16,510 nt of DNA from Chitinophagaceae bacterium (GCA_004173255.1 SDZZ01000146.1:1-16510), one strand, 5' to 3'; positions 2,128 through 15,535 are shown, numbered from the stretch's first letter. Notes: generated by a model from the letters alone, not told the origin. Translations and numbers: made by a program.

Positions 2128-2209
2128 GCCCAGGTGGCGGAATTGGTAGACGCAGCAGACTCAAAATCTGCCGCCGCAAGGTGTATCGGTTCGATTCCGA
2201 TCCTGGGCA
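2128..2209 (+). tRNA. tRNA-Leu(CAA): tRNA-Leu (anticodon CAA), type II with long variable arm
   Basis: Acceptor stem GCCCAGG/CCTGGGC. Three-bp D-stem with AATTGGTAGA loop. Anticodon stem GCAGA/TCTGC with loop CTCAAAA (anticodon CAA). Long variable arm CGCCGCAAGGTGT. T-arm ATCGG-TTCGATT-CCGAT, discriminator A. CCA is not encoded. The minus-strand ORF 1941..2210 overlaps it and is spurious. Confidence 0.9.
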
Positions 2210-2261
2210 CTGAATGGACAAGTTGAAATCATTTCGGCTTGTCCATTTTTCGTTTCAGCCC

Positions 2262-2942
2262 TCACCCCTTCTCATGCGCGTACACCGCAAACAGCTTCCA
2301 GAAGTGTCCCGGCTTTGCAAAATCAAACCGGTGTTTCTTGAAATTATTCAGCACCAGGTCGATTGTTGTCCCACTCAGGTGAAACTGCCCGATCATAATC
2401 TCGGATCCGGCCACATACAACCCGGTCTTTCCATCGCACAGGTGCACATTCTCCCGGGTTAATTCTTCAAACACCAGCACGTCGTTCATGCGGTAATCCG
2501 GGAGCGCCTGATGATGGGCTATATTGCTGTTAAATGAGACGGCAACCAGTTTGTTGTTGCTGGTCTCCGGTAAAACAAGCTTCGGAAATTCAGCCGCACT
2601 ATCAAACGCCAGTTCATTCCTCACCCCCCTCATGTAAACCGTATCACTGATAAAAGGAACGTCCCGCATCTGAAGGTTGATAATCCGGCCTTCGTCTTCC
2701 AGCAACTTGTCACCATTGTATTGCAGGATCTCGTTTACGGACAATACCTCCTGTACAAATTTGCTTAGCGGTATGCAAAAATAATTGGCAATTTTGATTG
2801 CGGTCTCCAGTTTGGGCTCCGCACGGTTCTCCTCGTACGAAGAAATATTTCCACGGGTGAGCTCAAATAAATCGGCAAAAGCTTGCTGACTGAGGTTCTT
2901 AGCCGTCCTGATTTTTTTTATATTGGTACCCGTCTTCAGCAT
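2262..2942 (-). CDS. XRE-family (Cro/CI-type HTH) transcriptional regulator with an uncharacterised C-terminal domain
   Basis: 226 aa. N-terminus IKKIRTAKNLSQQAFADLFELTRGNISSYENRAEPKLETAIKIANYF is a classic HTH_XRE. The C-terminal ~130 aa lack the GDSM Ser/Lys dyad of LexA/S24 peptidases, so peptidase activity is not supported. It is transcribed divergently from the pspA operon. Confidence 0.75.
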   Translation of the reverse strand: MLKTGTNIKKIRTAKNLSQQAFADLFELTRGNISSYEENRAEPKLETAIKIANYFCIPLSKFVQEVLSVNEILQYNGDKLLEDEGRIINLQMRDVPFISDTVYMRGVRNELAFDSAAEFPKLVLPETSNNKLVAVSFNSNIAHHQALPDYRMNDVLVFEELTRENVHLCDGKTGLYVAGSEIMIGQFHLSGTTIDLVLNNFKKHRFDFAKPGHFWKLFAVYAHEKG

Positions 2943-3065
2943 GGTGAAATATCGTTTGCAAATATTTTTATCCTAATGCAAATATTATTTGCAAATATAA
3001 GTGAAGTTCTCTAGATTTGTTCTACAAAATTTAACCATCGATGGATTTTATGTCCACCATACAGG
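2943..3065. promoter_or_regulatory. Divergent promoter region with three TTTGCAAA-core palindromic operator-like sites
   Basis: TTTGCAAA at 2955-2962, half-site ATGCAAATAT at 2976-2985, and a perfect 12-bp palindrome TATTTGCAAATA at 2986-2997. All lie within an AT-rich intergenic region between the XRE regulator start (2942, minus) and the small ORF/pspA operon (3066, plus). Confidence 0.45.
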
Positions 3066-3266
3066 ATGTTTAAACAGCTGCTGCAGAAAAACCGGGATAT
3101 GATCCATGGTGCCTTTGTGATCAATGAAGAAGGCAACAAGGTCCTGTTCCGGTACACGATGCAGCTGGAAAATATCAATTTCAATGAATTTGAAGGCGCC
3201 ATCAATTCATTGGGTTTGCTGCTGAGCGAGTATTACCAACAAATTATTAATTTTTCAAAATTGTAG
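3066..3266 (+). CDS. Small hypothetical protein (66 aa), probably the first gene of the pspA operon
   Basis: The ORF ends at TAG 3264-3266, 4 bp before the pspA ATG. It is on the same strand and sits right after the operator-bearing promoter. I recognise no family. It overlaps an antisense ORF 3011..3205 that is less plausible. Confidence 0.4.
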   Translation: MFKQLLQKNRDMIHGAFVINEEGNKVLFRYTMQLENINFNEFEGAINSLGLLLSEYYQQIINFSKL

Positions 3267-3270
3267 TATT

Positions 3271-3969
3271 ATGAATCTGTTTAAAAGAATCTTCAGGATC
3301 GGACAGGCTGAAATCCATGCTGCTGTTGAAAAAATGGAAGATCCGGTAAAAATGACCGAGCAGGGGCTGCGCGAACTGAGGGAAGACCTGGCACAGGCGA
3401 CCGAAGCCTATGCCCGCGTGAAGGCCCTGGCCATCCGGACCGAAAATGAAAAAGAAGTTTGCCAGAAAGAGTCGCTGAACTACGCCGAAAAAGCTATATT
3501 GATCATGCAAAAAGCACAGCATGGCGAAGTGGAAATCGTGAAAGCCGAACAACTGGCCCGTGAAGCACTCTCACTGCGCCGGCAATACTACACGGACTCC
3601 GAAAATCTTGCCGTGCAGGTAGTTGCTCACCAGCAAAGCTCCCAGGAAATGCTGAATAATATCGGCATCCTAAAAGAGAACCTGGCGAAATGGGAAAAAG
3701 AACTGAAAACACTGAAGGCACGGGTGAAAGTGAGCAAGGCCACGCAGCAGGTAAACAAACAACTGGCCCAGCTGGATACGAACGGCACCATTGCCATGCT
3801 GGAACGGATGAAAGAAAAAGTGGAAGACCAGGAAGCCCTGTCGAAAGCCTATGGTGAAATAGCAAGGGATAAACACACCATGAAGGACGAACTGGACAAG
3901 ATCCTGAAAGATGATACCACGTCGATAGAAAAAGACCTGGCTGCGATAAAGACCAAGCTTGGGATGTAG
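3271..3969 (+). CDS. pspA: PspA/IM30 family protein (phage-shock protein A / Vipp1 / LiaH; bacterial ESCRT-III superfamily)
   Basis: 232 aa. The N-terminus MNLFKRIFRIGQAEIHAAVEKMEDPVKMTEQGLRELREDL matches the PspA signature (F-R-x-x-I-x-A-x-x-x-K-x-EDP-x-K-M...). The rest is long heptad-rich helical sequence of typical PspA length. Confidence 0.85.
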   Translation: MNLFKRIFRIGQAEIHAAVEKMEDPVKMTEQGLRELREDLAQATEAYARVKALAIRTENEKEVCQKESLNYAEKAILIMQKAQHGEVEIVKAEQLAREALSLRRQYYTDSENLAVQVVAHQQSSQEMLNNIGILKENLAKWEKELKTLKARVKVSKATQQVNKQLAQLDTNGTIAMLERMKEKVEDQEALSKAYGEIARDKHTMKDELDKILKDDTTSIEKDLAAIKTKLGM

Positions 3970-4003
3970 GGTTGTCGATACCGAAGTGGACATGACCATA
4001 ATA

Positions 4004-4192
4004 TCCCTCCGGGATGACAAAAGCTTGTGAGGTCCCTCCGGGATGACAAACCTCGGGATGTCCCTCCGGAATGACAAAAGCTTGGGAGGTCCCTCCGGGA
4101 TGACAAAAGCTTCAAAGGTCCCTCCGGGATGACAAACCTCGGGATGTCCCTCCGGAATGACAAAAGCTTGTGAGGTCCCTCCGGGATGACAA
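4004..4192. repeat. Tandem repeat array 1: 7 units of about 29 bp (consensus GTCCCTCCGG[G/A]ATGACAAA plus about 10 variable nt)
   Basis: Units begin at about 4004, 4033, 4061, 4090, 4119, 4148 and 4175. The conserved 19-nt core is followed by short variable segments (AGCTTGTGAG, CCTCGGGAT, AGCTTGGGAG, AGCTTCAAAG), several used more than once. A higher-order duplication of about 86 bp is visible. The array lies between the pspA stop (3969) and the nfeD start (4254). Confidence 0.9.
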
Positions 4193-4253
4193 GTCCCATC
4201 GGGGTTACAAACGCGCTGTGAAAGACGAACCGAACACGAACCAAACAACCAAC

Positions 4254-4934
4254 ATGCTCTCCACCTTATCCGAACTACTGTTCCATCCGCTATCCAACGC
4301 TATCATGACTATCCTGTCAGGCATTACGGCGTTGTACTGGATTTTCTCCTTCCTGGCAGGCGACTTCCTGGGTGATATGGATTTTGCACCCGAGGTGGAT
4401 GGCGGAATTGGCGTGGATACAGATGCTGATATCGATGCAGGGGAAGCGGGGGGTGAACAATCATTCTTTTCGAAAGCGCTGGAGTTTGTCAACGTGGGCA
4501 AAGTGCCGTTCATGATCGTATACAGCGTGTTTAAATTCATAGCATGGATCATTACACTGCTTAGTTCGGTCGTTTTTAAAATCGCAGACTGGGGCTGGAA
4601 GTCCGCGTTGATCCTGATCCCCGTCTTTATCATCGCATTCCTCATTACCAGGTATGCAACAAAACCATTAGTGAAGATGTACAATGCCATGGGCTATAAC
4701 GGCGAAGAAGCACACGACCTCATTGGCCGGATCGCCAGGATGCGCTCAGCCGTAACCGGCGACAAGATCGGTGCGGCAGAACTGGTGATCAATAACGATG
4801 TGATCCGCATCAATGTCAAAAGCAAATCGGGCGACCCTATCAACTACAACTCCGAAGTCATGATCGCTGACGAATCGACCGATAAACGATACTATTACGT
4901 AGTACCCGAAATAACATTAAACAATATCCTTTAA
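4254..4934 (+). CDS. NfeD/YqiJ-like membrane protein (partner of SPFH/flotillin proteins)
   Basis: About 226 aa from ATG 4254 (the track ORF begins at 4170, inside the repeat). It has hydrophobic TM segments (ILSGITALYWIFSFLAG; FMIVYSVFKFIAWIITLLSSVVF; ALILIPVFIIAFLI) and a C-terminal soluble beta-rich region (VTGDKIGAAELVINNDVIRINVKS...) consistent with an NfeD-type OB-fold. It sits immediately upstream of a flotillin gene, as in yqiJ-yqiK and nfeD-floT pairs. Confidence 0.7.
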   Translation: MLSTLSELLFHPLSNAIMTILSGITALYWIFSFLAGDFLGDMDFAPEVDGGIGVDTDADIDAGEAGGEQSFFSKALEFVNVGKVPFMIVYSVFKFIAWIITLLSSVVFKIADWGWKSALILIPVFIIAFLITRYATKPLVKMYNAMGYNGEEAHDLIGRIARMRSAVTGDKIGAAELVINNDVIRINVKSKSGDPINYNSEVMIADESTDKRYYYVVPEITLNNIL

Positions 4935-5016
4935 TAAAAGGGGGATTAACACTCCCGCCTGCCACCGGAACATTCATTCATCAAAACTGATTACTTAACC
5001 ATCAACCTACCTTACC

Positions 5017-7050
5017 ATGTTTGACGCACTAGGCGGAATTACCCTCGTTATTATCGGAAGCGTCGCCTTCCTTGTTTTCATCATCCTCGCTGCATTCGCC
5101 AGCTTCTATAAAAAAATCCCACAGGGAAAGGCAATTGTACGAACCGGTGTGGGCGGCGGTAAAGTCGCTTTCAACCAGGGTATGTATGTGATCCCCATCC
5201 TGCATAAAATGGAGATCATGGACATCTCCGTCAAAAAACTGCAGATCGACCGGATGGAAGGTGAAGGACTGATCTGTAAAGACAATATCCGGGCAGACAT
5301 TAAGGTAGCCTTCTTCGTCCGCGTCAATAAAAGTGTTGAAGACGTCCTGAACGTAGCACAGATCATCGGCACGGAACGAGCCAGCGACACGGAAACACTC
5401 ACCAACCTGTTCGAAGCCAAATTTTCGGAAGCACTGAAAACCGTGGGTAAAAAATTTGACTTCATTTCCCTGTATGAAGCACGCCGGGAATTCAGGAATG
5501 AAATCCTTGATATCATCGGGACCGACCTGAACGGCTACATCCTGGATGATTGTGCCATCGACTACCTGGAACAAACCGAAATGAAATTCCTGAGTCCGGG
5601 TAATATCCTCGATTCGGAAGGCATCCGCAAAATCACCGAACTGACTGCGGCGCAGAATATCAACGCCAACCTGATCCGCCGGGAAGAAGAAAAAGTGATC
5701 AAGAAACAAAACGTGGAAGCACGCGAAGCGATTCTTGAACTGGACCGCCAGCTGGCCGAAAAAGAAGAGAAACAAAAACGCGAGATCGATAACGTTAAGT
5801 CACGCGAGTACGCCGAAACGCTCAAGGTACGGGAAGAAGAACGACTGAAATCGGAAACCGTCCGCATCAAGACTGATGAGAGCCTTGCTGTACAGGAAGA
5901 AAATAAACTACGCCAGGTGATCATCGCTGCAAAAAACAAGGAACGTACCAATGCAGTGGAAACGGAACGTGTGGAAAAAGACCGCGCACTCGAAGCGAAC
6001 GAGCGGGAAAAGATTGTTACCCTGGCACAGATTGAAAAGGAACGCAATATCGAGGTGGAAAAGAAAAATATCCAGGATGTGATCCGCGAAAGGGTTAAAC
6101 TGGAAAAAGGGGTAGCAGAAGAACAGCAAAACATGAAGGACATCGAATCTTTCCGTACCGTAGAGCGTGCGAAAACAGTGGGCATCACCGACGCAAGCAG
6201 GCTGGCCGAAGAAAAACTGATCTACACCGTGAAAGCCGCAGAAGCGGATAAAAAAGCAGCGGGTGAAAAAGCACAACAGATGATCATCGATGCAGAAGCG
6301 AAAAAAGAAGCTTCTGTAAAAGAAGCAGAAGCACGTAAGATACTGGCTGACGCTATGGCGCGCGAAGAAGCCACACTTGGCTTATCTGAAGCAGAAGTAA
6401 TGATTGCCAAAGCCGAAGCGCTCGAACGCCAGGGTATGGTCGATGCAGGCGTAGTAGAAAAAATGGCTGAAGCAAGACGAAAAGAAGGACTCGCCGAAGC
6501 GGAAATAACCCGCGAAAAAGCATTCGCCGAAGCCGCAGGTATATCCGAAAAAGCGGAAGCCATGAAAAAAATGGATGGCGTGGGTAAGGAACACGAAGAA
6601 TTCAAACTGGTACTGCAAAAGGACAAGGAAATTGCACTGGCACATATCAGTATCAACAAGGATATTGCTGTTGCGCAGGCCGACGTACTGGGCACCGCAC
6701 TTAAGACCGCGAAGATCGACATCGTGGGTGGCGAAACCATGTTCTTTCAGAACATCGTGAACCAGATCTCCAACGCCAAAGGGTTCGACCGATTGATCAA
6801 TGAAAGTGAAAATGCAACCGCAATAAAAAATGCCCTGCTGGGCGATAGCGAAGGTGGCAACCCGCTGGAACGCATCCGGAATTTTGCAGAGAAATACAAG
6901 ATCTCTTCAAATGATTTAAAGAACCTGACCATCTCGGGCCTGATCCTGAAGATGCAGTCCAACAGCTCCGATGACGACCGCAATTCGCTGCTCGACCTGA
7001 GCCGGATCGCCAATAGCCTCGGCCTGGCAAACAAGAAGCTGAACGCCTAA
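5017..7050 (+). CDS. Flotillin-like SPFH/band-7 family protein (YqiK/FloT-like)
   Basis: 677 aa. N-terminal TM helix (ITLVIIGSVAFLVFIILAAFA), an SPFH domain (GKAIVRTGVGGGKVAFNQGMYVIPILHKMEIMDISVKKLQI...), then a very long Glu/Ala/Lys-rich coiled-coil flotillin domain (EAEAKKEASVKEAEARKILADAMAREEA...). The antisense ORFs in this span (5562..6188, 6222..6740) are low-complexity artefacts. Confidence 0.9.
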   Translation: MFDALGGITLVIIGSVAFLVFIILAAFASFYKKIPQGKAIVRTGVGGGKVAFNQGMYVIPILHKMEIMDISVKKLQIDRMEGEGLICKDNIRADIKVAFFVRVNKSVEDVLNVAQIIGTERASDTETLTNLFEAKFSEALKTVGKKFDFISLYEARREFRNEILDIIGTDLNGYILDDCAIDYLEQTEMKFLSPGNILDSEGIRKITELTAAQNINANLIRREEEKVIKKQNVEAREAILELDRQLAEKEEKQKREIDNVKSREYAETLKVREEERLKSETVRIKTDESLAVQEENKLRQVIIAAKNKERTNAVETERVEKDRALEANEREKIVTLAQIEKERNIEVEKKNIQDVIRERVKLEKGVAEEQQNMKDIESFRTVERAKTVGITDASRLAEEKLIYTVKAAEADKKAAGEKAQQMIIDAEAKKEASVKEAEARKILADAMAREEATLGLSEAEVMIAKAEALERQGMVDAGVVEKMAEARRKEGLAEAEITREKAFAEAAGISEKAEAMKKMDGVGKEHEEFKLVLQKDKEIALAHISINKDIAVAQADVLGTALKTAKIDIVGGETMFFQNIVNQISNAKGFDRLINESENATAIKNALLGDSEGGNPLERIRNFAEKYKISSNDLKNLTISGLILKMQSNSSDDDRNSLLDLSRIANSLGLANKKLNA

Positions 7051-7067
7051 TACTCCCGGTAAAACGG

Positions 7068-7101
7068 ACAGTAACCGCACCCGCATGGATGCGGTTACTG
7101 T
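7068..7101 (+). terminator. Stem-loop (12-bp perfect stem, 10-nt loop) between flotillin and the giant ATPase gene
   Basis: ACAGTAACCGCA (7068-7079), loop CCCGCATGGA, TGCGGTTACTGT (7090-7101). It begins 18 nt after the flotillin stop and has no clear U-tract. It could be an intrinsic terminator/attenuator or an RNA-processing or stability element. Confidence 0.4.
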
Positions 7102-7131
7102 TACTTACTGACCATACCCCGCGTGATCATC

Positions 7132-10100
7132 ATGGATGTAAAAGATAAAAACCAGGGATCGGCACTCGATTCCGGCACATACGAAATAATCAGGAACAGG
7201 CTCGATGCACAACGGGTCGACCTGGGTGCACGACTGGCGAAGCTGAATGCCGCGCGGCACGAGATCTTCAGCGCAACCGGTTTTGAACTGATCGCCAACC
7301 AGCGGATCACGACTGAAAACCATGGCGAAGCCCGTGGGCTGATTGCCCTGGGTGACCTCTGCATTTTTGGATACAACGTGCATTTTGGCCTCAGGGAAAA
7401 CATAAAACTGAGCGACGTATTCAGCGTTTACCGGTTTGCCAGCGACCATTTTGAACCGCAGCCGTTAACACTCATCGATGACCCGGGATTTATAACCGAC
7501 TTCACTAACCTGTACAAGTACTACCGGGATTCCCTTTTTGCCAAATTCCACCTGGCCGGAAATTACCTGTTCATGATCTTCCAGACCAGCAAAAACCCGG
7601 AAGACAAAAAGGCCTTCAAATGGATGATCAGGGGCAATACGCTGCAGTATGTCGATGATCGCAGCCTGCAGGAAGTGCAGAAAGCCCCGCAACACGACTT
7701 CCACTGGAACCGTACCAGCCTGGAAGACCGCCGGCTCGGTGTTCACCCGCATATCTCCATCCTCGATAAGGTGTTTATCGAAGCCATTGGTGGCGATATC
7801 ACTTTTAAAATTGAAAACAATACAGCCACCGGCCGCGGTATTTATTCCGAACCTGTGATGAACCGGGATCAGCAGCTCGATGATGCAGAATACTATTACG
7901 CCGATCTCGGTAACCTGATCGCCATAAAAATCCGCCCCTACCAGGAGGAAGCACGGTCGTTTATATTCAACATCCGTACCCGCGAAGTCAAACCAATCCG
8001 GATGCTCCTCGATGCGGGCATCCTGCTGCCCGACAATCAGGGTGTCATTTTCCCGAACGGCTACTACCTGCAGAACGGGGAGTATAAAATATTTGAGTCT
8101 GACCTTTCCAATCTCGAATTCATCAGGTCCATCGCGTCGCCCAACGGGGAAGACCTGCTTTACGTCTTTTACCAGGTGCGGCTCAACACATACGTGCTGA
8201 TGTCGTACAATATCATTTCACACCAGGTGGAAACGCCCATCATCTGCAACGGCTTCACCGTTTTTAACGATGGTAAACTGATCTACTTCCGATCCGAACA
8301 GGAGGCAGTACGCCACCACCAGGTGCAGATCTGGCAAACCCCCTACACAGCAGTGCTGCAGGAAAATGAAGCCATGCAGGATAATGTGCTGTTCAAGATC
8401 GGCAACAAGGATATCGTGAGCGCCATGTCGGAAAGCCACGAAATCATGCAGCTGCTGGGCAAGGAAGATTCATTCGAACGTCTCTACGAAGACATCAATA
8501 AAAAAGCCAATGACCTGGTCGACTCCTACTTCTGGATCAGGGATGAAGCAGCATTCAATCTTGCTGCACCACTCGAACAGATCCGGGATATAGCCGCTAC
8601 TGCCATTGACGAATTTGCCCGGGTACAGGCCCAGCGCCAGCATGCCCGCGACACCATGGCCGCCATGCAGAAAAAAGTGGAACAACTGGTGATCGATGTT
8701 AAAAACAGCGTGGTCACTTCCCTCGACCAGCTGGTAAAAATACTGGCGGGCGTTCGTGATATGCAGGGAGCGGTGATCGACCTGTCCAATGTAAAATATA
8801 TCCAGCCCGAACAGGTGGCTAAACTGAAAGAACTACTCGACCATTATAACGGCAGCCTTTCACAGGATACAATCAACTTCCTGCTGAAGGACCAGGCATT
8901 ACAGCCATACGAACAGAAAGTAACCGACCAGAAAGCCGCAGTGGCGAAAGTGACTAAAGTGGTCGAGGCCCAGGAAATTGAAAAAGCAATTACCGGTATT
9001 GCGGGCGAACTCGAAATGCTGATCGATATCCTCAACAGTTTGAAAATCGACGACAGCACCCAAAGCACCCGCATCATCGAGAAAATCTCCCTGATCTTTT
9101 CTTCACTGAATGAAGTGAAAGCCGACCTGGTGCGCAACATCCGCTCACTCCGCAACAAAGAAGCCACCGGTGAATTTTATGCACAGCTTACACTGCTGGA
9201 ACAGGGCATCGTAAGTTTCCTTGACCTGTCCACTACACCCGATAAGGCTGAGAACTATTTTACCAAGGTGAGCGTGCAGATCGAGGAACTGGAATCGCGC
9301 TTCGCTGACTTCCCCGACTTTGTGTTGAAGATCGCCGATAAACGGGACGAGGTTATCAAGGCATTCAACGTTAAAAAAGAAATGCTGGTGGCGGCCATTA
9401 ACAAACGGACCGCTTCGCTTGAACAGATCGGTCTGCGCGTACTGAAAAACATCAGCAACAAGGCCGCGTCTTTTGACAGCAAGGAAAAGATCTATGCCTT
9501 CTTCTCGGCCGACCTGATGATCGGGAAAGTGCGCAGCCTGGCCGAAGAACTGGCTGCACTCGGCGATGTGGCCAAAGCAGAGAATCTCGAAAACCAGTTG
9601 AAGCTGGCGCAGGAAGAGGCATTGCGCAACCTGAAAGATAAAACGGACCTGTTCGTCGACGGGCAGAATATTATTTCACTGGGTGACCACAAATTCGTGG
9701 TGAATAAACAGGTGCTTGACCTCAGTATCATCCGGAAAGACGAAAAATTATTCTATCACCTTACCGGCACCAGTTTTTATAAGGAGGTCAGCGCGGAAAA
9801 CCTGTATCAATACCGCAACATCTGGGAGCAGGAGATCATTTCGGAAAATGCAGCTGTGTACCGCGGCGAATACCTGGCCTACGAAACTTACCTGGCAAGC
9901 CTTTCAGCCGATACAGGATGGGATGCTGTCACATTTATCAATGAACGGGTAGAACGGGATTATACAGCTGCATATCTCAAAGGCGTGCACAATACCGATG
10001 CGCTGGCCATTTACCAGCAGCTGAAAACAATTTTCGATGCACTGGGTATTCTCCGTTTTGCCCCATCGGTGAGGGCTGCGGCACAATTATTCTGGTTCCG

Positions 10101-11976
10101 GCTCGATGTGGCATCACAGGAAAAACTGCAGCATTTAATTACAGCTGCCGCTTCTATCGAAGATAGTTTCCCGGGCAGCCGCCAGTACTCTTTTGTCATT
10201 GATCGTATCAGCAACCAATACAATACCCTGGCGGTTCCAGCCATCGCTTTAGCCGACGCGTCCGATGTTGCCGGATACCTTTACCGCGAATTTGCCACCG
10301 GCCGCAACTTCACTGCCAGCCAGCAGGCGGTTAAAATCAGGAAGGGGTTCAATGATTTTTTACTGTCAAATAAAAAACTCGAACTCTTCAGGCAGGACTC
10401 GGAAAACGGTTCGTTCAGCCTGGAAGAAAAGTTTTTTGTGATCCAGAACTGGCTGCAGGCATTTTTAGCAAAAGATGGTGGCGACCAGTTGTACATTACC
10501 GAGGCTGTATGCCTGCTGCTGTTCCGCGATCATGCCTACCGTGAACGACCGGCCAACGACCACGCAGTGGTGGGCAATCTTAAAGGCAGCCACGGGGTCA
10601 TTGTTGAACAGCAATACCAGCTCCACTTTCATCGCTTCCTGGAAAAAATGTCCGGCTATACCTCTGCTATTGTGCCCGCATTTACGGCGTTCAATCAACT
10701 GAAGACGGAGCTGGCCGCTGCTTATCGCCAGCAACTGCGGATCAACGAATTTGAGCCGCGTGTGCTGAGTTCGTTTGTACGAAACCGGCTTATCAATGAA
10801 ATATATTTCCCGCTCATCGGTGGCAATCTTGCCAAACAGATCGGCAGTGCGGGCGATGATAAACGCACAGCCCGGATGGGCATGTTGCTGCTGGTATCCC
10901 CTCCCGGCTATGGTAAGACCACCTTGATGGAATATCTGTCCCGTACTATGGGATTACATTTTGTAAAAATCAACGGGCCGACTATCGGTCACAGCATTAC
11001 ATCGATCGACCCCGTGGAAGCCACCACCTCCGGTGCCAGGGAAGAACTGAAAAAGATCAACCTGGCCATGGAGATGGCAGACAACGTGATGTTGTATCTC
11101 GACGATATCCAGCACTGCAGTGCCGAGTTCCTGCAGAAGTTTATTTCGCTGGCCGATGGCCAGCGCAAGATGGATGGCATTTTTGAAGGCAACAGCCGCA
11201 CCTACGATCTTCGCGGCAAAAGATTCTGCATTGTGATGGCCGGTAATCCATACACGGAAAGCGGCGAACAATTCAAAATCCCGGACATGCTGGCCAACCG
11301 GGCGGATGTGTACAACCTCGGCGATGTGATCGGTTCATCAGACCAGTTATTTAACCTGAGCCTGGTTGAAAATGCAGTAGCGGAGAACCGTTACCTGCAA
11401 AGGATTACCAACCGGAGTTTTGATGACCTCTATAAACTGGTTGATTACCTGGAAACCGGTGCAGAAATGATGCCGGTGCTGGAAGGCAATTACGTGGGCC
11501 AGGAAGTGGACGATGCGCTGGCTGTATTGAAAAATGTACTGGAAGTACGCAAAGTGGTGATCCAGGTGAACCAGCATTATATCGCCAGCGCTGCCATGAA
11601 AGATAGTTACCGTACAGAACCCGCATTCAAACTGCAGGGCTCTTATCGCAATATGAATAAGATGGTTGGTAAAATTGTACCAATGATGAACCGGCAGGAA
11701 GTGGATACATTAATGCTGTCCCACTATGAAAGCGAATCACAGACGCTCACCTCCGATGCCGAGGCAAACCTGCTGAAGTTAAAAGAGCTGATGGGTAACC
11801 AGTCGGACCAGGAACGCCAGCGCTGGGAACAGATCAAAACCATTTTTCGAAAGAATAATAAGTTCGGCGGACTGGATAGCAGCGACACATCAGGTCAGAT
11901 GCTGATGCAGCTCAGTAGTTTTAATGAACACCTGGAAGCAATTGCGAGTGCAATGCAGAATGGCAAAACAAAATAA
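7132..11976 (+). CDS. Giant (about 1615 aa) uncharacterised protein with a C-terminal MoxR/AAA_5 (dynein-related) type ATPase domain
   Basis: The ORF is 4.85 kb and uninterrupted. The track starts it at GTG 7123, but ATG 7132 is more likely. Walker A is LLLVSPPGYGKTTL (G-Y-G-K-T at nt 10906-10920). Walker B is VMLYLDDIQ (nt about 11091-11111). IVMAGNPYTESGEQFKIPDMLANRADVYNL resembles the MoxR/AAA_5 ATxNP...LPxAxLDRF sensor/arginine region. Before the ATPase there is a roughly 430-aa beta-rich N-terminal region and roughly 800 aa of mostly helical/coiled-coil sequence. After it there is a roughly 200-aa C-terminal tail. Confidence 0.9.
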   Translation: MDVKDKNQGSALDSGTYEIIRNRLDAQRVDLGARLAKLNAARHEIFSATGFELIANQRITTENHGEARGLIALGDLCIFGYNVHFGLRENIKLSDVFSVYRFASDHFEPQPLTLIDDPGFITDFTNLYKYYRDSLFAKFHLAGNYLFMIFQTSKNPEDKKAFKWMIRGNTLQYVDDRSLQEVQKAPQHDFHWNRTSLEDRRLGVHPHISILDKVFIEAIGGDITFKIENNTATGRGIYSEPVMNRDQQLDDAEYYYADLGNLIAIKIRPYQEEARSFIFNIRTREVKPIRMLLDAGILLPDNQGVIFPNGYYLQNGEYKIFESDLSNLEFIRSIASPNGEDLLYVFYQVRLNTYVLMSYNIISHQVETPIICNGFTVFNDGKLIYFRSEQEAVRHHQVQIWQTPYTAVLQENEAMQDNVLFKIGNKDIVSAMSESHEIMQLLGKEDSFERLYEDINKKANDLVDSYFWIRDEAAFNLAAPLEQIRDIAATAIDEFARVQAQRQHARDTMAAMQKKVEQLVIDVKNSVVTSLDQLVKILAGVRDMQGAVIDLSNVKYIQPEQVAKLKELLDHYNGSLSQDTINFLLKDQALQPYEQKVTDQKAAVAKVTKVVEAQEIEKAITGIAGELEMLIDILNSLKIDDSTQSTRIIEKISLIFSSLNEVKADLVRNIRSLRNKEATGEFYAQLTLLEQGIVSFLDLSTTPDKAENYFTKVSVQIEELESRFADFPDFVLKIADKRDEVIKAFNVKKEMLVAAINKRTASLEQIGLRVLKNISNKAASFDSKEKIYAFFSADLMIGKVRSLAEELAALGDVAKAENLENQLKLAQEEALRNLKDKTDLFVDGQNIISLGDHKFVVNKQVLDLSIIRKDEKLFYHLTGTSFYKEVSAENLYQYRNIWEQEIISENAAVYRGEYLAYETYLASLSADTGWDAVTFINERVERDYTAAYLKGVHNTDALAIYQQLKTIFDALGILRFAPSVRAAAQLFWFRLDVASQEKLQHLITAAASIEDSFPGSRQYSFVIDRISNQYNTLAVPAIALADASDVAGYLYREFATGRNFTASQQAVKIRKGFNDFLLSNKKLELFRQDSENGSFSLEEKFFVIQNWLQAFLAKDGGDQLYITEAVCLLLFRDHAYRERPANDHAVVGNLKGSHGVIVEQQYQLHFHRFLEKMSGYTSAIVPAFTAFNQLKTELAAAYRQQLRINEFEPRVLSSFVRNRLINEIYFPLIGGNLAKQIGSAGDDKRTARMGMLLLVSPPGYGKTTLMEYLSRTMGLHFVKINGPTIGHSITSIDPVEATTSGAREELKKINLAMEMADNVMLYLDDIQHCSAEFLQKFISLADGQRKMDGIFEGNSRTYDLRGKRFCIVMAGNPYTESGEQFKIPDMLANRADVYNLGDVIGSSDQLFNLSLVENAVAENRYLQRITNRSFDDLYKLVDYLETGAEMMPVLEGNYVGQEVDDALAVLKNVLEVRKVVIQVNQHYIASAAMKDSYRTEPAFKLQGSYRNMNKMVGKIVPMMNRQEVDTLMLSHYESESQTLTSDAEANLLKLKELMGNQSDQERQRWEQIKTIFRKNNKFGGLDSSDTSGQMLMQLSSFNEHLEAIASAMQNGKTK

Positions 11977-11978
11977 TG

Positions 11979-12225
11979 GTCATCCTGTAAGGATCAGGTT
12001 GTCATCCTGCAAGGATCAGGTGGCGATTGTCATCCTTTAGGGATCAGGTTGTCATCCTGTAAGGATCAGGTTGTCATCCTGAAAGGATCAGGTTGTCATC
12101 CTGTAAGGATCAGGATGCATCCTGTAAGGATCAGGTTGTCATCCTGTAAGGATAAGATTGTCATCCTGCAGGGATCACGTTGTCATCCTGTAAGGATTAG
12201 GTTGTCATCCTGTAAGGATCACTCG
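11979..12225. repeat. Tandem repeat array 2: 11 units of 22 bp (consensus GTCATCCTGTAAGGATCAGGTT)
   Basis: The array is head-to-tail with no spacers. It begins 3 nt after the giant gene's TAA stop. One unit carries a 6-nt insertion (GCGATT), one is 21 nt long, and scattered point variants occur. Each unit contains the small hairpin ATCCT-GTA-AGGAT. The ORF 12049..12273 (+) is a translation artefact of the array. Confidence 0.9.
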
Positions 12226-12232
12226 GCGGTTG

Positions 12233-12718
12233 TCAGATCTTCAGGTTCTTTATGGGCGGACCAACACGCGTAAACCCATGTTCCTGCCGTAATGCTTCCC
12301 GCTGTTCTTCGGTCATATCTTTCAGCACGCCTTGCGCACTTAATTTAAAAAATGCTTCCATCTTGCCTGCGGGCTGGAATCCCATCATCAACTTGGCTTC
12401 GCCTTCACCCACTTTGCAGAATGCATGGGGTACACCGCGCGGGCCAAATACAAAGTCGCCCGGTTTAGCAGTAAAATCCTTGCCGCCTACGCGGAATAAA
12501 AATTCACCGGTCATTACATACCACCATTCGTCCTGCGTGGCATGCACATGATAGGATTCCATCAGCGAAAGCGGCTGGTCCAACCGGTCCTTCCCCGCAT
12601 CCACCTTATACCCTTTTGCATCGCGGTTGAACCGGAACCCGTTCGCCAGGGTTCGCATCGGGACTAACGCAACTGAACCTGCGGCCAGCAGGAGTTTCAT
12701 AAAGCTGTTTCTTTTCAT
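12233..12718 (-). CDS. Secreted cupin-domain protein
   Basis: 161 aa. Signal-peptide-like N-terminus MKRNSFMKLLLAAGSVALVP. Cupin motif 1 is HVHATQDEWWYVMTGE and motif 2 is PGDFVFGPRGVPHAF. Confidence 0.8.
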   Translation of the reverse strand: MKRNSFMKLLLAAGSVALVPMRTLANGFRFNRDAKGYKVDAGKDRLDQPLSLMESYHVHATQDEWWYVMTGEFLFRVGGKDFTAKPGDFVFGPRGVPHAFCKVGEGEAKLMMGFQPAGKMEAFFKLSAQGVLKDMTEEQREALRQEHGFTRVGPPIKNLKI

Positions 12719-12812
12719 TGTCTGTAATTGTGAGGAAAAGCTACGTAATTCCCCGATACAGAAGTATCCCCTCTTCGTGGTAGGATTTCGCGGTTAACCA
12801 ATCCTGAAGAAA

Positions 12813-13724
12813 TTAAAGCACGGCGCCGTCTTGCTGTAAAGAACTCATTGTATACTCCGGCCATGCCCCCTTTTTGGTCGCCACGAACGATCCGAGCTGA
12901 CACGCAAAAGCAAGTGCATCCTGCACTCCCTTCCCATTAATCACCGAATATAGAAACCCCGCCAGGAAAGAATCACCGCTGCCGACCGTATCGGCTACCT
13001 GCACTTTAAAACCCGAATGTGAAGCCCATTCGTCTTTATAACAAACCATTGCACCATTCGCGCCGCGTGTAACCAGCACCGACCTGATCCCGAACTTTTC
13101 CCGTACAAGATTTACCTGGCCTTGCATATCGCCTGCTTGTCCATACCAGCTGCTGATCAGCTCCAGTTCCTCTTCATTCATTTTGAGCAGATCTGCCTGT
13201 TCCATCAGTGTCTCGAGTGTATCGCGCGTATAATGCGGTGCCCGCAGGTTGATGTCCAGGATTTTTTCTTTAGCATGCCCGAGTAACTCGATCAGGGCGG
13301 CACGCGAATCTTCGCGGCGGGCAACCAGGCTTCCGTAAATAAAGTAGGCAGACTCTTCCACCAGTTTCAGCAGCGAGGGAATCACGGTGATATGGTCCCA
13401 TGCTGCTAAATCGGCAAATTCATACTTCATATCGCCGTTTGCATCCGGTGTTGCATTGACCACACCAGTCGGAATGGCCAGATCGACCTGTACATGGGAA
13501 GTATCTACCTGCAGTCCGTGAAGTATCGACATCAGTTCATCGCCCCGTTCATCGGACCCAAGGCGGGTAATGAGTTGCGGATTCAACCCGAGCGTATGCA
13601 GGTGATAGGCTACATTCATGGGTGCACCACCTGGCAAAGCGCCCGTTGGCAGCAGGTCCCAGAGGATCTCACCGAAGCAGACGATGGTCGGTGTATTTTC
13701 AATATGGCTTGTCATGGTGTCCAA
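12813..13724 (-). CDS. PfkB-family carbohydrate kinase (fructokinase/ribokinase-like)
   Basis: 303 aa. The N-terminus has a PfkB-type GG motif context (IVCFGEILWDLLP). The C-terminus has PfkB signature 2 (DTVGSGDSFLAGFL). Confidence 0.85.
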   Translation of the reverse strand: MDTMTSHIENTPTIVCFGEILWDLLPTGALPGGAPMNVAYHLHTLGLNPQLITRLGSDERGDELMSILHGLQVDTSHVQVDLAIPTGVVNATPDANGDMKYEFADLAAWDHITVIPSLLKLVEESAYFIYGSLVARREDSRAALIELLGHAKEKILDINLRAPHYTRDTLETLMEQADLLKMNEEELELISSWYGQAGDMQGQVNLVREKFGIRSVLVTRGANGAMVCYKDEWASHSGFKVQVADTVGSGDSFLAGFLYSVINGKGVQDALAFACQLGSFVATKKGAWPEYTMSSLQQDGAVL

Positions 13725-13733
13725 ATGTAATGA

Positions 13734-14579
13734 TTAATGGGTAACAGGATTGGGCAACTCACGGCCCTCGAGACCTGCCAGCATGTTGCTGGCCGCGATC
13801 CTGGCCATGGCGGTCCTGGCCTCCACCGTTGCAGAACCGATATGCGGAAGTACCGCCACATTGGGCAGGTCGAGCAGTGGGTTGGATGCCAGCATGGGCT
13901 CCGGATTGGTAACATCCAGTCCCGCCCCCCAGATCAATCCCTGCTGCAGGGCATGCAGCAGGTCGGTTTCATTGTGTAACCCGCCCCGGCCGGCATTAAT
14001 AAAAATGGCGGAAGTTTTCATCTGCGCAAATACCTTTTTATCAAACAACCCTTTGGTCTGCGGCGTTAAAGAGGCATGCACGCTGAGCACATCACTTTGT
14101 CGCAGCAATTCTTCAAACGAAACATAGCTGGCACCAAGTACCTGTTCTGCTTCCGCGTTGACGGACCTGTTGTGGTAAATGATCTTCATACCGTATGCGC
14201 CCTGGCACCGTTTCGCCATTTCGAGACCTATTTTACCAAGGCCGAACACGCCAAGGGTTTTACCCGAAAGCTCCACTCCCAGGTTGGCGGTCGGATCATA
14301 AAATCCCCAGTTGCCTGCAGCGATCTGTTTATGCAGGAAGAACGCTTTTCGTGAAACGGCCAGCATGAGCAGGAAGGCAGTATCGGCGGTGGCCGCGCTG
14401 AGTACAGCCGGGGTATTACTAACCGGAACATTGGCACGTCCATCCTGGTCCTGGCAGGTCCGGATCAGTTCTTCCTGGGTGAGTTCCCTTTTTTCAGTAT
14501 GGATCGTAAGGGTGTGACCGGCATTGCGCAGCATAGCCAGGCCTTCATCCGGTAATACACGGGTAACGAAAATTTTCAT
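13734..14579 (-). CDS. D-isomer-specific 2-hydroxyacid dehydrogenase (glyoxylate/hydroxypyruvate reductase-like)
   Basis: NAD-binding G-x-G-x-x-G (GVFGLGKIGLEMAKR). The catalytic-region motif (LLHALQQG.IWGAGLDVTNPEP...LPHIGSAT) is typical of D-2-HADH. The start is probably at MKIFVTR (14579) rather than the track's 14609. Confidence 0.85.
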   Translation of the reverse strand: MKIFVTRVLPDEGLAMLRNAGHTLTIHTEKRELTQEELIRTCQDQDGRANVPVSNTPAVLSAATADTAFLLMLAVSRKAFFLHKQIAAGNWGFYDPTANLGVELSGKTLGVFGLGKIGLEMAKRCQGAYGMKIIYHNRSVNAEAEQVLGASYVSFEELLRQSDVLSVHASLTPQTKGLFDKKVFAQMKTSAIFINAGRGGLHNETDLLHALQQGLIWGAGLDVTNPEPMLASNPLLDLPNVAVLPHIGSATVEARTAMARIAASNMLAGLEGRELPNPVTH

Positions 14580-14614
14580 CCTGCAATTTACCAAAAGCGC
14601 AGGCGGCAAAAAAA

Positions 14615-15535
14615 TCAGGCCATCGAGTCCTGATTCTCGGACTGATAGCTATTGGAATCCTGGAAAATGCGCATCTTACTGTACAGGGTCTTTCGGCTGA
14701 TCTTCAGGATTTCAGCGGCTTTGCGTTTGTTATTACGTGTTTCGTACAATGTTTTGCAGATAAGATCATACTCGGCTTTAAGCACTGCTTTTTTAAGGAA
14801 CAACGGGTCGTGCGACTGGTAGGAGCGCACAGCCGCAGGCAGCAGCCGGGGCGCAACAGGTACCCCGTTTTCACCAAGGAACACAGCATCACGCACCAGC
14901 TCCCTCAACTCGTACAGGTTACCTGGCCACGCATAATTGCCCAGTATCTCCATCGCCTCCTCACTGAAACCAGGCACTTCCCGATTCCATTCCAGGTTTG
15001 TTTTTGCAAGGAAGTAGTTCAGGAAAAACTGGATGGTCTTTTTATTATGCCGAAGGGGAGGTATAGCGAGTGTGTTTTTTTCCGGTATGACAGCCAGCTG
15101 CTCGTGGGGGCTACGTGTGCCCCCGGTTTTACTGAGGCCGGTTATTATGCGGCACTGCAGGACATCAGAGATTCGGGGCAGGAACTGTTCCTGTTCCTCG
15201 AAGGGCAACTCGCTAAAATTATTCAGCCACACCGTACCGCCCCGGATGGATTCCAGGAGTCCCTCATCGGCCAGTTTCTGTAACTCCGCAAATTCCCTGC
15301 GAATAGGCTGCGAAAGCTCTACCAGCGCAGGATACGCAGCCGAGGTGATGCAGTTGATTATAAGGAATGGCCGCTCGTTGCGCTCACTCAGGTCATGGAT
15401 AAGTTCAGCAATCCATTCCCTTCCTGAATCTTTGGGCCCGGCCAGTATCACCGGCAGGTCATTAGCAGCAATCGTGTTGACCTGTTCCACAAAACCCGGT
15501 ATCATTACCTGGGTATTATTCATTTCTGTTTCCAT
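14615..15535 (-). CDS. Sigma54-activator (NtrC/EBP)-like regulator with degenerate ATPase motifs and C-terminal Fis-type HTH. It has no receiver domain
   Basis: 306 aa. YAWPGNLYELRELV matches the EBP Y-x-WPGN-x-REL motif. The C-terminal AEILKISRKTLYSKMR is a Fis-type HTH. Walker A is GPKDSGRE (versus GESGTGKE) and Walker B is WLNNF (versus FLDEI). There is no GAFTGA motif, so it probably cannot hydrolyse ATP or contact sigma54. Confidence 0.75.
   Translation of the reverse strand: METEMNNTQVMIPGFVEQVNTIAANDLPVILAGPKDSGREWIAELIHDLSERNERPFLIINCITSAAYPALVELSQPIRREFAELQKLADEGLLESIRGGTVWLNNFSELPFEEQEQFLPRISDVLQCRIITGLSKTGGTRSPHEQLAVIPEKNTLAIPPLRHNKKTIQFFLNYFLAKTNLEWNREVPGFSEEAMEILGNYAWPGNLYELRELVRDAVFLGENGVPVAPRLLPAAVRSYQSHDPLFLKKAVLKAEYDLICKTLYETRNNKRKAAEILKISRKTLYSKMRIFQDSNSYQSENQDSMA

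Follow-up and report, generated by a model that had tools for sequence, protein, structure and literature searches.

A giant DUF3686 ATPase encoded with flotillin-like and YqiJ-like membrane proteins in a PspA operon of a Chitinophagaceae bacterium

Larger operons in which a CesT/Tir-PspA dyad is combined with three further genes are described in passages of Ravi et al. (2024, mSystems, PMC11237479), and a locus of this kind, a run of genes for membrane-associated proteins and a giant AAA+ ATPase on a contig of a Chitinophagaceae metagenome-assembled genome (MAG; GCA_004173255.1 SDZZ01000146.1), is analysed here. The complete contig of 16,510 bp is referred to as the window. An origin from Escherichia coli was considered and rejected, as 5,426 genomes of that species gave no megablast match. 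According to the same passages, the operons include a three-transmembrane protein typified by YqiJ and YuaF, abbreviated operons without the CesT-PspA dyad are spread more widely, and associations of PspA with AAA+ proteins are likened to Snf7-Vps4. PspA together with band-7/FloT, NfeD and helix-turn-helix (HTH) regulators was observed independently by Popp et al. (2022, PMC9239133). SPFH proteins are known to assemble into large oligomers on membranes (PMC7619361, PMC9239133), and in Bacillus subtilis the SPFH protein YdjI is needed for the recruitment of PspA to the membrane (cited in PMC7619361 and PMC9239133). How bacterial PspA/Vipp1 polymers and SPFH/flotillin assemblies are dismantled or reshaped is an open question; according to a 2025 review, bacteria have no known Vps4-like regulator (PMC7619361).

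The locus belongs to the CesT/Tir-PspA-YqiJ-flotillin-AAA+ operon class as it appears in the passages of Ravi et al.: the same five components are present with the same domain architectures, the CesT/Tir-like one in truncated form. The gene combination had been put forward as unusual in an earlier note on this DNA; both the operon type and the ESCRT-III/Vps4 analogy are already contained in those passages (PMC11237479). The existence of the membrane operon is nevertheless confirmed, and the interpretation given in the earlier note is supported in part. The main result of the present analysis is that the ATPase has its constant partners in the flotillin pair and not in PspA. New, besides these partner statistics, are the assignment of the AAA+ clade, the conserved regulator and operator, and the lesions found in the genome of the window.

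The operon and the partners of its ATPase

The operon consists of the following genes and gene remnants.

3041..3073, plus strand: 5′ remnant of the CesT/Tir-like gene, with the ancestral ATG (3041) and first codons, then a frameshift to TAA
3066..3266, plus strand: 3′ half of the CesT/Tir-like gene, a 66-aa open reading frame (ORF) from an internal ATG, Pfam CesT_Tir_1 1.5e-26
3271..3969, plus strand: PspA/IM30, YjfJ-like, bacterial ESCRT-III superfamily, Pfam PspA_IM30 1e-37
4254..4934, plus strand: YqiJ/YuaF-type (NfeD-like) membrane protein, 226 aa, YqiJ_N 5e-4
5017..7050, plus strand: flotillin-like protein, 677 aa, Band_7 4.4e-12 (isolated N-terminal segment)
7132..11976, plus strand: giant AAA+ ATPase, 1614 aa, Pfam DUF3686, DUF7902 and AAA

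The ORF list bears out the five co-directional genes in one run that had been proposed, at or near their first assigned positions. Nine antisense ORFs (105-248 aa) are all without a Pfam match. The starts at 4254 and 7132 were preferred to those of the ORF finder (4170 and 7123) because of the lengths of homologues and an invariant Met1. The last three genes of the operon, encoding the YqiJ/NfeD-like protein, the flotillin-like protein and the giant ATPase, are referred to as the trio.

A scan of one genome per species yielded at least 587 confirmed stretches that encode a relative of the ATPase. The best 80 loci were taken, and the 63 of them with enough upstream DNA are the basis of the neighbour counts below. 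ORFs were called in these loci and searched with profiles from the window proteins and their first matches.

Flotillin-like gene upstream of the ATPase, same strand, usually adjacent: 60/63 loci
YqiJ-like gene near the ATPase: 59/63 loci
PspA near the ATPase: 32/63 loci
CesT-like gene near the ATPase: 31/63 loci
Divergent regulator near the ATPase: 31/63 loci

A neighbourhood survey of this type had been suggested in the earlier note; it upholds synteny with the flotillin-like gene (60/63) and the YqiJ-like gene (59/63), but not the constancy of PspA (32/63). The PspA-positive loci all belong to Bacteroidota, and the homologue of the divergent regulator is found each time together with CesT and PspA. 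The CesT-PspA pair and the regulator are an add-on, seen in Bacteroidota. Loci from Planctomycetota, Verrucomicrobiota, Clostridia and Desulfobacterota contain the trio only. As a whole the trio ranges over these four groups, Bacteroidota, Gammaproteobacteria and Actinomycetota, and apparently also over Deinococcota, where the ATPase gene alone was checked. Genes lying between flotillin and ATPase in 17 loci were considered as extra components of the system and rejected, being heterogeneous (transposase-like, lipoproteins, small membrane proteins) and mutually unrelated.

The survey was supplemented by a protein search of plasmid records for relatives of the ATPase. Proteus mirabilis and Vibrio campbellii carry the trio only, and a plasmid of Streptomyces encodes, in this order, a small protein with a weak match to the YqiJ-like profile, flotillin and the ATPase. 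pQBR103, a megaplasmid of Pseudomonas fluorescens SBW25, encodes on one strand (L085/L089, NC_009444.1 84437-97641) YjfI, PspA, a rhomboid protein, DUF2491, DUF350, DUF1190, a glutathionylspermidine-synthase-like protein, a YqiJ-like protein, an SPFH protein and the ATPase. Here a yjfIJKLMC-like cluster to which a rhomboid protease gene has been added passes directly into the trio, and the polyamine-associated class of PspA operons is thereby connected with the flotillin-ATPase class. A functional link is supported by at least two separate joinings of PspA and a CesT-like partner to the trio, with different chaperone families (CesT_Tir_1 in one case, YjfI on pQBR103 in the other).

The ATPase family is large, with at least 4058 homologues at E ≤ 1e-10 among 8000 candidates scored and 1138 clusters at 50% identity (E ≤ 0.001). 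Sequence conservation is high: the ATPases of Chitinophagaceae and Cytophagales are ∼70% identical, and the flotillin-like proteins retain 48-81% identity across phyla. Horizontal spread and an accessory role would agree with such a patchy occurrence across phyla at high identity; the accessory character proposed in the earlier note is a fair description of a locus that is patchily distributed and sometimes borne on megaplasmids.

The giant ATPase and the proteins encoded with it

In the giant ATPase Pfam assigns DUF3686 to residues 30-467 (4.5e-163), DUF7902 to residues 588-669 and a single AAA/AAA_5 module to residues 1252-1376. The AAA_5 assignment was correct from the start; the protein had not been placed in a characterised family, and DUF3686 and DUF7902 are Pfam families that are named but uncharacterised. 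An AlphaFold run with a 30-sequence alignment gave a predicted local distance difference test (pLDDT) score of 88.4 (residues 850-1614) and 81.8 (residues 1-1100), and the following predicted domains.

7285..8337, plus strand: beta-propeller domain, residues ∼52-402, equal to DUF3686, pLDDT mostly 85-93
8386..9642, plus strand: helical-bundle/coiled-coil arm, residues ∼419-837, including DUF7902
9673..10731, plus strand: small beta domain and helical domain, residues ∼848-1200, no informative structural neighbour
10759..11973, plus strand: AAA+ module and C-terminal helical domains, residues ∼1210-1614

In the predicted layout an N-terminal helix (residues 14-45) precedes the propeller, which is followed by ∼400 residues of long helical bundles, the small beta domain (∼848-885) and the helical domain. 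The AAA+ module is predicted to have a beta-hairpin ahead of sensor 1 and helical C-terminal domains after it. Alignment of the window ATPase with 24 representatives, down to 30% identity, shows that the Walker A motif SPPGYGKTT, the Walker B motif LDDIQH, sensor-1 residue N1372, R1390 and the C-terminal motif EPxFKLQGSYRxM are invariant in all 25 sequences. Comparison of the AAA+ module with other AAA+ proteins gave these scores:

CbbQ (MoxR family): 17.7
NorQ (MoxR family): 16.4
Midasin: 15.1
Dynein: up to 14.8
Vps4: 10.9-11.5

The predicted AAA+ module is MoxR/midasin/dynein-like and lies outside the classic clade. It is of AAA_5 type and structurally closest to MoxR proteins; the other marks of that family, a length of ∼300 residues and a partner with a VWA domain, are lacking, no VWA domain being found among the window ORFs scanned. 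Nor is there a Pfam match to an MIT domain, as would be expected of Vps4 and the classic clade. For the propeller, Foldseek returned generic propellers only, with a template-modelling score (TM) of ∼0.1 over the whole query. In the fold searches with the N-terminal 1100 residues, the top Foldseek matches to IFT-A, dynein heavy chain, nucleoporin and clathrin reached TM ∼0.1 and are not counted as evidence for kinship with coat proteins.

The NfeD/YqiJ-like reading of the earlier note agrees with a YqiJ_N match of the protein (20.7 bits) that stays under the Pfam cut-off of 23; the Pfam NfeD model has no match to the protein. YqiJ_N is matched by 13 of 28 homologues (best 9.6e-7), and a profile of these 28 homologues finds the NfeD-type C-terminal domain of YuaF from B. 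subtilis (2K14) with E = 0.0099.

The flotillin-like protein contains an N-terminal transmembrane segment (a hydrophobic stretch at residues ∼8-29, judged by eye from the sequence), an SPFH/band-7 domain, an extended helical region rich in Glu and Ala, and a C-terminal domain that is conserved. Band_7 matches residues 33-187 of the isolated first 245 residues with 46.8 bits against a cut-off of 23.6, so that the SPFH part of the original flotillin/SPFH assignment is secure; a match to Pfam Flot is not significant (E = 4.2). The whole 677-aa protein has no match in Pfam, NCBIfam or the Protein Data Bank (PDB), probably owing to its biased coiled-coil composition, and its N-terminal segment has no sequence match among PDB chains. 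The profile of the family finds QmcA as its only PDB match (0.0075). The architecture and the RefSeq names of homologues ('flotillin family protein' or 'SPFH domain-containing protein') agree with flotillin.

PspA is identified as a member of the PspA/IM30 superfamily, as first proposed, by 130 bits to PspA_IM30 (cut-off 33.9) and by the alignment of residues 1-229, essentially full length, to solved Vipp1/PspA chains in the PDB (4e-18). Orthology to Escherichia coli PspA is ruled out by the NCBIfam equivalog model TIGR02977, to which the protein scores 52.7 bits, far under the cut-off of 242.95. No pspF, pspB or pspC adjoins the operon, the sigma-54-activator-like gene at 14615-15535 not having been assessed as a PspF candidate.

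The small ORF at the head of the operon had been taken for a standalone gene; the ORF is present, and it is the 3′ half of a broken CesT/Tir-like gene. Its family assignment is secure (93 bits), with coverage of profile positions 66-130 of 131 only instead of a complete domain of ∼130 residues. In Terrimonas ferruginea and in L003, a MAG whose ATPase is 79% identical to that of the window, the CesT/Tir-like protein is intact and 130 aa long. The half-length match is explained by a 167-nt internal deletion relative to L003, which shifts the frame into the TAA at 3071-3073; in the intact L003 copy GGAT stands at both deletion junctions. Either the chaperone gene has been inactivated in the lineage of the window, or the assembly is wrong at the deletion.

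Regulator, operator and repeats around the operon

Upstream of, within and behind the operon the following further features are found.

2128..2210, plus strand: tRNA-Leu(CAA), ARAGORN and Rfam, a neighbour outside the module
2262..2942, minus strand: divergent XRE-family (HTH_3) regulator, 226 aa, Pfam HTH_3 1.7e-11
2955..2997: operator-like palindromes, TTTGCAAATA three times exactly, including a perfect 12-mer TATTTGCAAATA
2988..3019, plus strand: candidate Bacteroidota-type promoter, −33 element TTTG, −7 element TAGATTTG
4004..4192: 29-nt tandem array, 6.6 copies, in the pspA-yqiJ spacer, Tandem Repeats Finder (TRF)
7067..7102, plus strand: stable stem-loop in the flotillin-ATPase spacer, RNAfold −32 kcal/mol, z = −3.8
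11979..12221: 22-nt tandem array, 10.8 copies, immediately 3′ of the ATPase stop codon, TRF

The operon had been said to carry its own repressor, and the divergent XRE-type gene, with homologues at 31 of 63 related loci, answers to this; it is probably the repressor of the operon. The ∼150 C-terminal residues of the regulator have no Pfam match. On visual inspection they look like a LexA/CI-type beta domain that lacks the catalytic Ser-Lys pair, and this part could be the sensor of the repressor. The spacer of 123 bp between regulator and operon contains both the palindromes and the promoter match, which makes the operator-bearing promoter of the earlier note a fair reading; repression itself we infer. 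The palindrome motif is also present in the regulator/CesT spacers of L003 and of Terrimonas (L001), and TTTGCA/TGCAAA hexamers occur near the regulator start codon in most, though not all, of the scanned Bacteroidota loci (raw occurrence, with no background rate). The −33 element of the promoter falls within the palindrome. TTTG-N18-22-TAnnTTTG, which we take to be the Bacteroides promoter pattern, has a single match in the whole window, with 0.34 expected; a sigma-70 promoter scan is uninformative for a Bacteroidota genome.

The 'flanking repeats' of the earlier note prove to be two lineage-specific tandem arrays, one of them inside the operon, which bracket exactly the YqiJ-flotillin-ATPase trio and not the whole locus. 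They have a common core, TTGTCATCC / GGATGACAA, in opposite orientation. Of the close relatives, L003 contains no tandem repeats and L004 likewise lacks the arrays, and the pspA-yqiJ spacer of Terrimonas is only 6 nt long. The arrays are regarded as lineage-specific expansions of a short hairpin-forming repeat. With a broken chaperone gene and a repeat array between pspA and the trio, the genome of the window may have an impaired PspA arm. The stem-loop is found in the flotillin-ATPase spacer of every relative checked (L001, L003, L004, L005, L009 and L018), each time with a different sequence. It may lower ATPase expression relative to flotillin, and it may set the flotillin:ATPase ratio by attenuation, by termination or by stabilising the RNA.

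The adjacent tRNA, which is the only Rfam match in the window, had been taken as a sign of an accessory locus. In L003 a tRNA-Leu(CAA) also lies upstream of the operon, with two extra genes between tRNA and regulator, and a cNMP-binding gene and a cupin gene likewise surround the operon. The idea of a tRNA-linked island is rejected on account of this common flanking context, which also disfavours a recent tRNA-targeted insertion. Downstream, on the minus strand (12233-15535), lie genes for a cupin, a PfkB kinase, a 2-hydroxyacid dehydrogenase and a sigma-54-activator-like protein (AAA lid and HTH_8); the cupin gene is kept beside the operon in close relatives.

Possible functions and comparison with known systems

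The overall picture in which the ATPase uses ATP to remodel membrane assemblies of flotillin and NfeD, and PspA is an add-on, is favoured here by a little over an even chance; the specific remodelling role of the ATPase is put forward more tentatively, at less than an even chance. In this picture, derepression of the operon would follow a signal sensed by the XRE regulator. The flotillin-like and NfeD-like proteins would come together at the cytoplasmic membrane as an SPFH oligomer, the ATPase would form a ring via its AAA+ module, and its propeller-tipped arms would reach the SPFH assembly, so that ATP could be used to assemble, open or dismantle that assembly or to extract clients from it. 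The CesT-like chaperone might keep PspA soluble or deliver it, and the co-expressed PspA would seal the stressed membrane. Since the ATPase family is large, strongly conserved and almost always encoded right after the flotillin-NfeD pair, it is a concrete candidate for such a role. In its broadest form, the hypothesis makes the DUF3686 ATPase the energy source of bacterial membrane-scaffold dynamics, a midasin/MoxR-like ring mechanoenzyme that would grip, open or recycle flotillin/NfeD cages and co-encoded PspA polymers. This extension is speculative, and if it is true the ATPase would do the work of Vps4 while having arisen from another AAA+ clade.

Several observations weigh against these proposals. 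That the ATPase touches flotillin, forms a hexamer and hydrolyses ATP is in each case something that we infer. The Walker B motif has DD, not DE, in every aligned member, which makes the rate of hydrolysis uncertain. For the propeller and the arm, the structural matches are confined to generic propellers and to bundles of spectrin-like or three-helix type, none of them informative, and the binding partner of the ATPase is for this reason unreadable from the fold. At three loci (L052, L055 and L066) the ATPase has several kb of upstream DNA with no detectable flotillin-like or YqiJ-like gene; these loci could be rearranged, or the partners of the ATPase could be encoded elsewhere. The 80 loci were those that best matched a query from Bacteroidota, with a 10-kb flank on each side, and the PspA profile was trained on Bacteroidota, so that a divergent PspA, or one more than 10 kb away, would escape. 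Finally, no experimental study of the DUF3686 (PF12458) ATPase family turned up in the literature. Carriers of the ATPase family include Proteus mirabilis, Vibrio campbellii, pQBR103, Flavobacterium and Sphingobacterium. Proteus mirabilis, V. campbellii, P. fluorescens SBW25, Flavobacterium and Sphingobacterium are expected to be culturable and genetically workable, and the hypothesis is therefore directly testable.

The strongest competitor, though an unlikely one, is a Vps4 analogue in the strict sense, in which the ATPase disassembles or recycles the PspA/ESCRT-III polymer as its main substrate and flotillin and NfeD serve as a membrane platform only. PspA is in the same operon at 32 of 63 loci and was joined to the trio independently on pQBR103, reviews know of no Vps4-like regulator of bacterial PspA (PMC7619361), and the comparison is raised in the passages of Ravi et al. 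(PMC11237479), so that the Vps4-like action proposed in the earlier note had already been published as an idea. However, PspA is missing near the ATPase at all surveyed loci outside Bacteroidota and at several within, the AAA+ fold is nearest to MoxR, midasin and dynein rather than Vps4, no MIT domain was detected, and in the window it is the PspA arm that is degraded, by the broken chaperone gene and the repeat insertion, whereas the trio is intact. Because flotillin and YqiJ are invariant neighbours and PspA is not, a dedicated 'Vps4 for PspA' is weaker than the flotillin-directed reading.

A still less probable explanation is an anti-phage or conflict system, a repressor-controlled module that would sense membrane damage caused by infection and might act by abortive infection; a defence function had been entertained in the earlier note. 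The patchy occurrence across phyla with high sequence conservation, the presence on megaplasmids, an XRE-type regulator with an HTH like those in PADLOC models and a Fic/RhuM gene adjoining the locus in Terrimonas would all suit such a system. Against this, none of the five operon proteins matches PADLOC v2, where only the HTH of the regulator matches generic HTH models; 50,697 phage records contain no homologue; domains typical of nucleases, toxins or other effectors were not seen; and the genes that flank the operon, in the window as in close relatives, have ordinary metabolic and regulatory roles. No sign of a defence function emerged from these searches.

A function in DNA repair is very improbable: the NCBI/RefSeq name 'DNA repair ATPase', which follows the Pfam description of DUF3686 and is all that speaks for it, appears unfounded and misleading, since domain searches detected neither a DNA-binding nor a nuclease domain, the genes conserved beside it encode membrane proteins, weak RuvB matches are confined to 45 residues of the P-loop and the searched literature lends the name no support. 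Nothing in that literature joins 'DNA repair ATPase' to flotillin, or MoxR to flotillin/NfeD.

Compared with the operon class in the passages of Ravi et al. (PMC11237479), the window differs in the CesT-like gene cut by the 167-nt deletion and in the 29-nt array after pspA, and the divergent XRE regulator, the AAA+ clade and the partner frequencies are not reported in those passages. The dyad at the head of the operon, a CesT-like and a PspA-like protein, is shared with yjfIJKLMC of E. coli, the cluster that on pQBR103 is fused to the trio. Unlike yjfIJKLMC, the window has no DUF2491, DUF350, DUF1190 or ATP-grasp genes, and its chaperone belongs to CesT_Tir_1 and not to YjfI/DUF2170. The yqiJK pair of E. 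coli and the yuaFG (floT) pair of B. subtilis likewise place an NfeD/YqiJ-type protein directly upstream of a flotillin with a transmembrane segment, SPFH domain and coiled coil. In contrast to these, the flotillin-like protein of the window is longer (677 aa) and has no significant match to Pfam Flot; to our knowledge neither pair has a giant ATPase gene downstream.

The ATPase itself departs from each of its nearest relatives. In contrast to the MoxR proteins CbbQ, NorQ and RavA, it has no VWA-domain partner in the window, carries ∼1200 extra N-terminal residues and has DD in Walker B, and unlike midasin and dynein it contains one AAA+ module, not six fused ones. As in the archaeal and eukaryotic ESCRT-III/Vps4 systems, a protein of the ESCRT-III superfamily is encoded with an AAA+ ATPase, and by analogy an ATP-driven remodelling of a membrane-bound polymer is plausible. 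The ATPase of the window differs from Vps4 in that it belongs to another AAA+ clade, lacks an MIT domain, is ∼4 times larger, bears a propeller and a helical arm, and has PspA as an optional neighbour.

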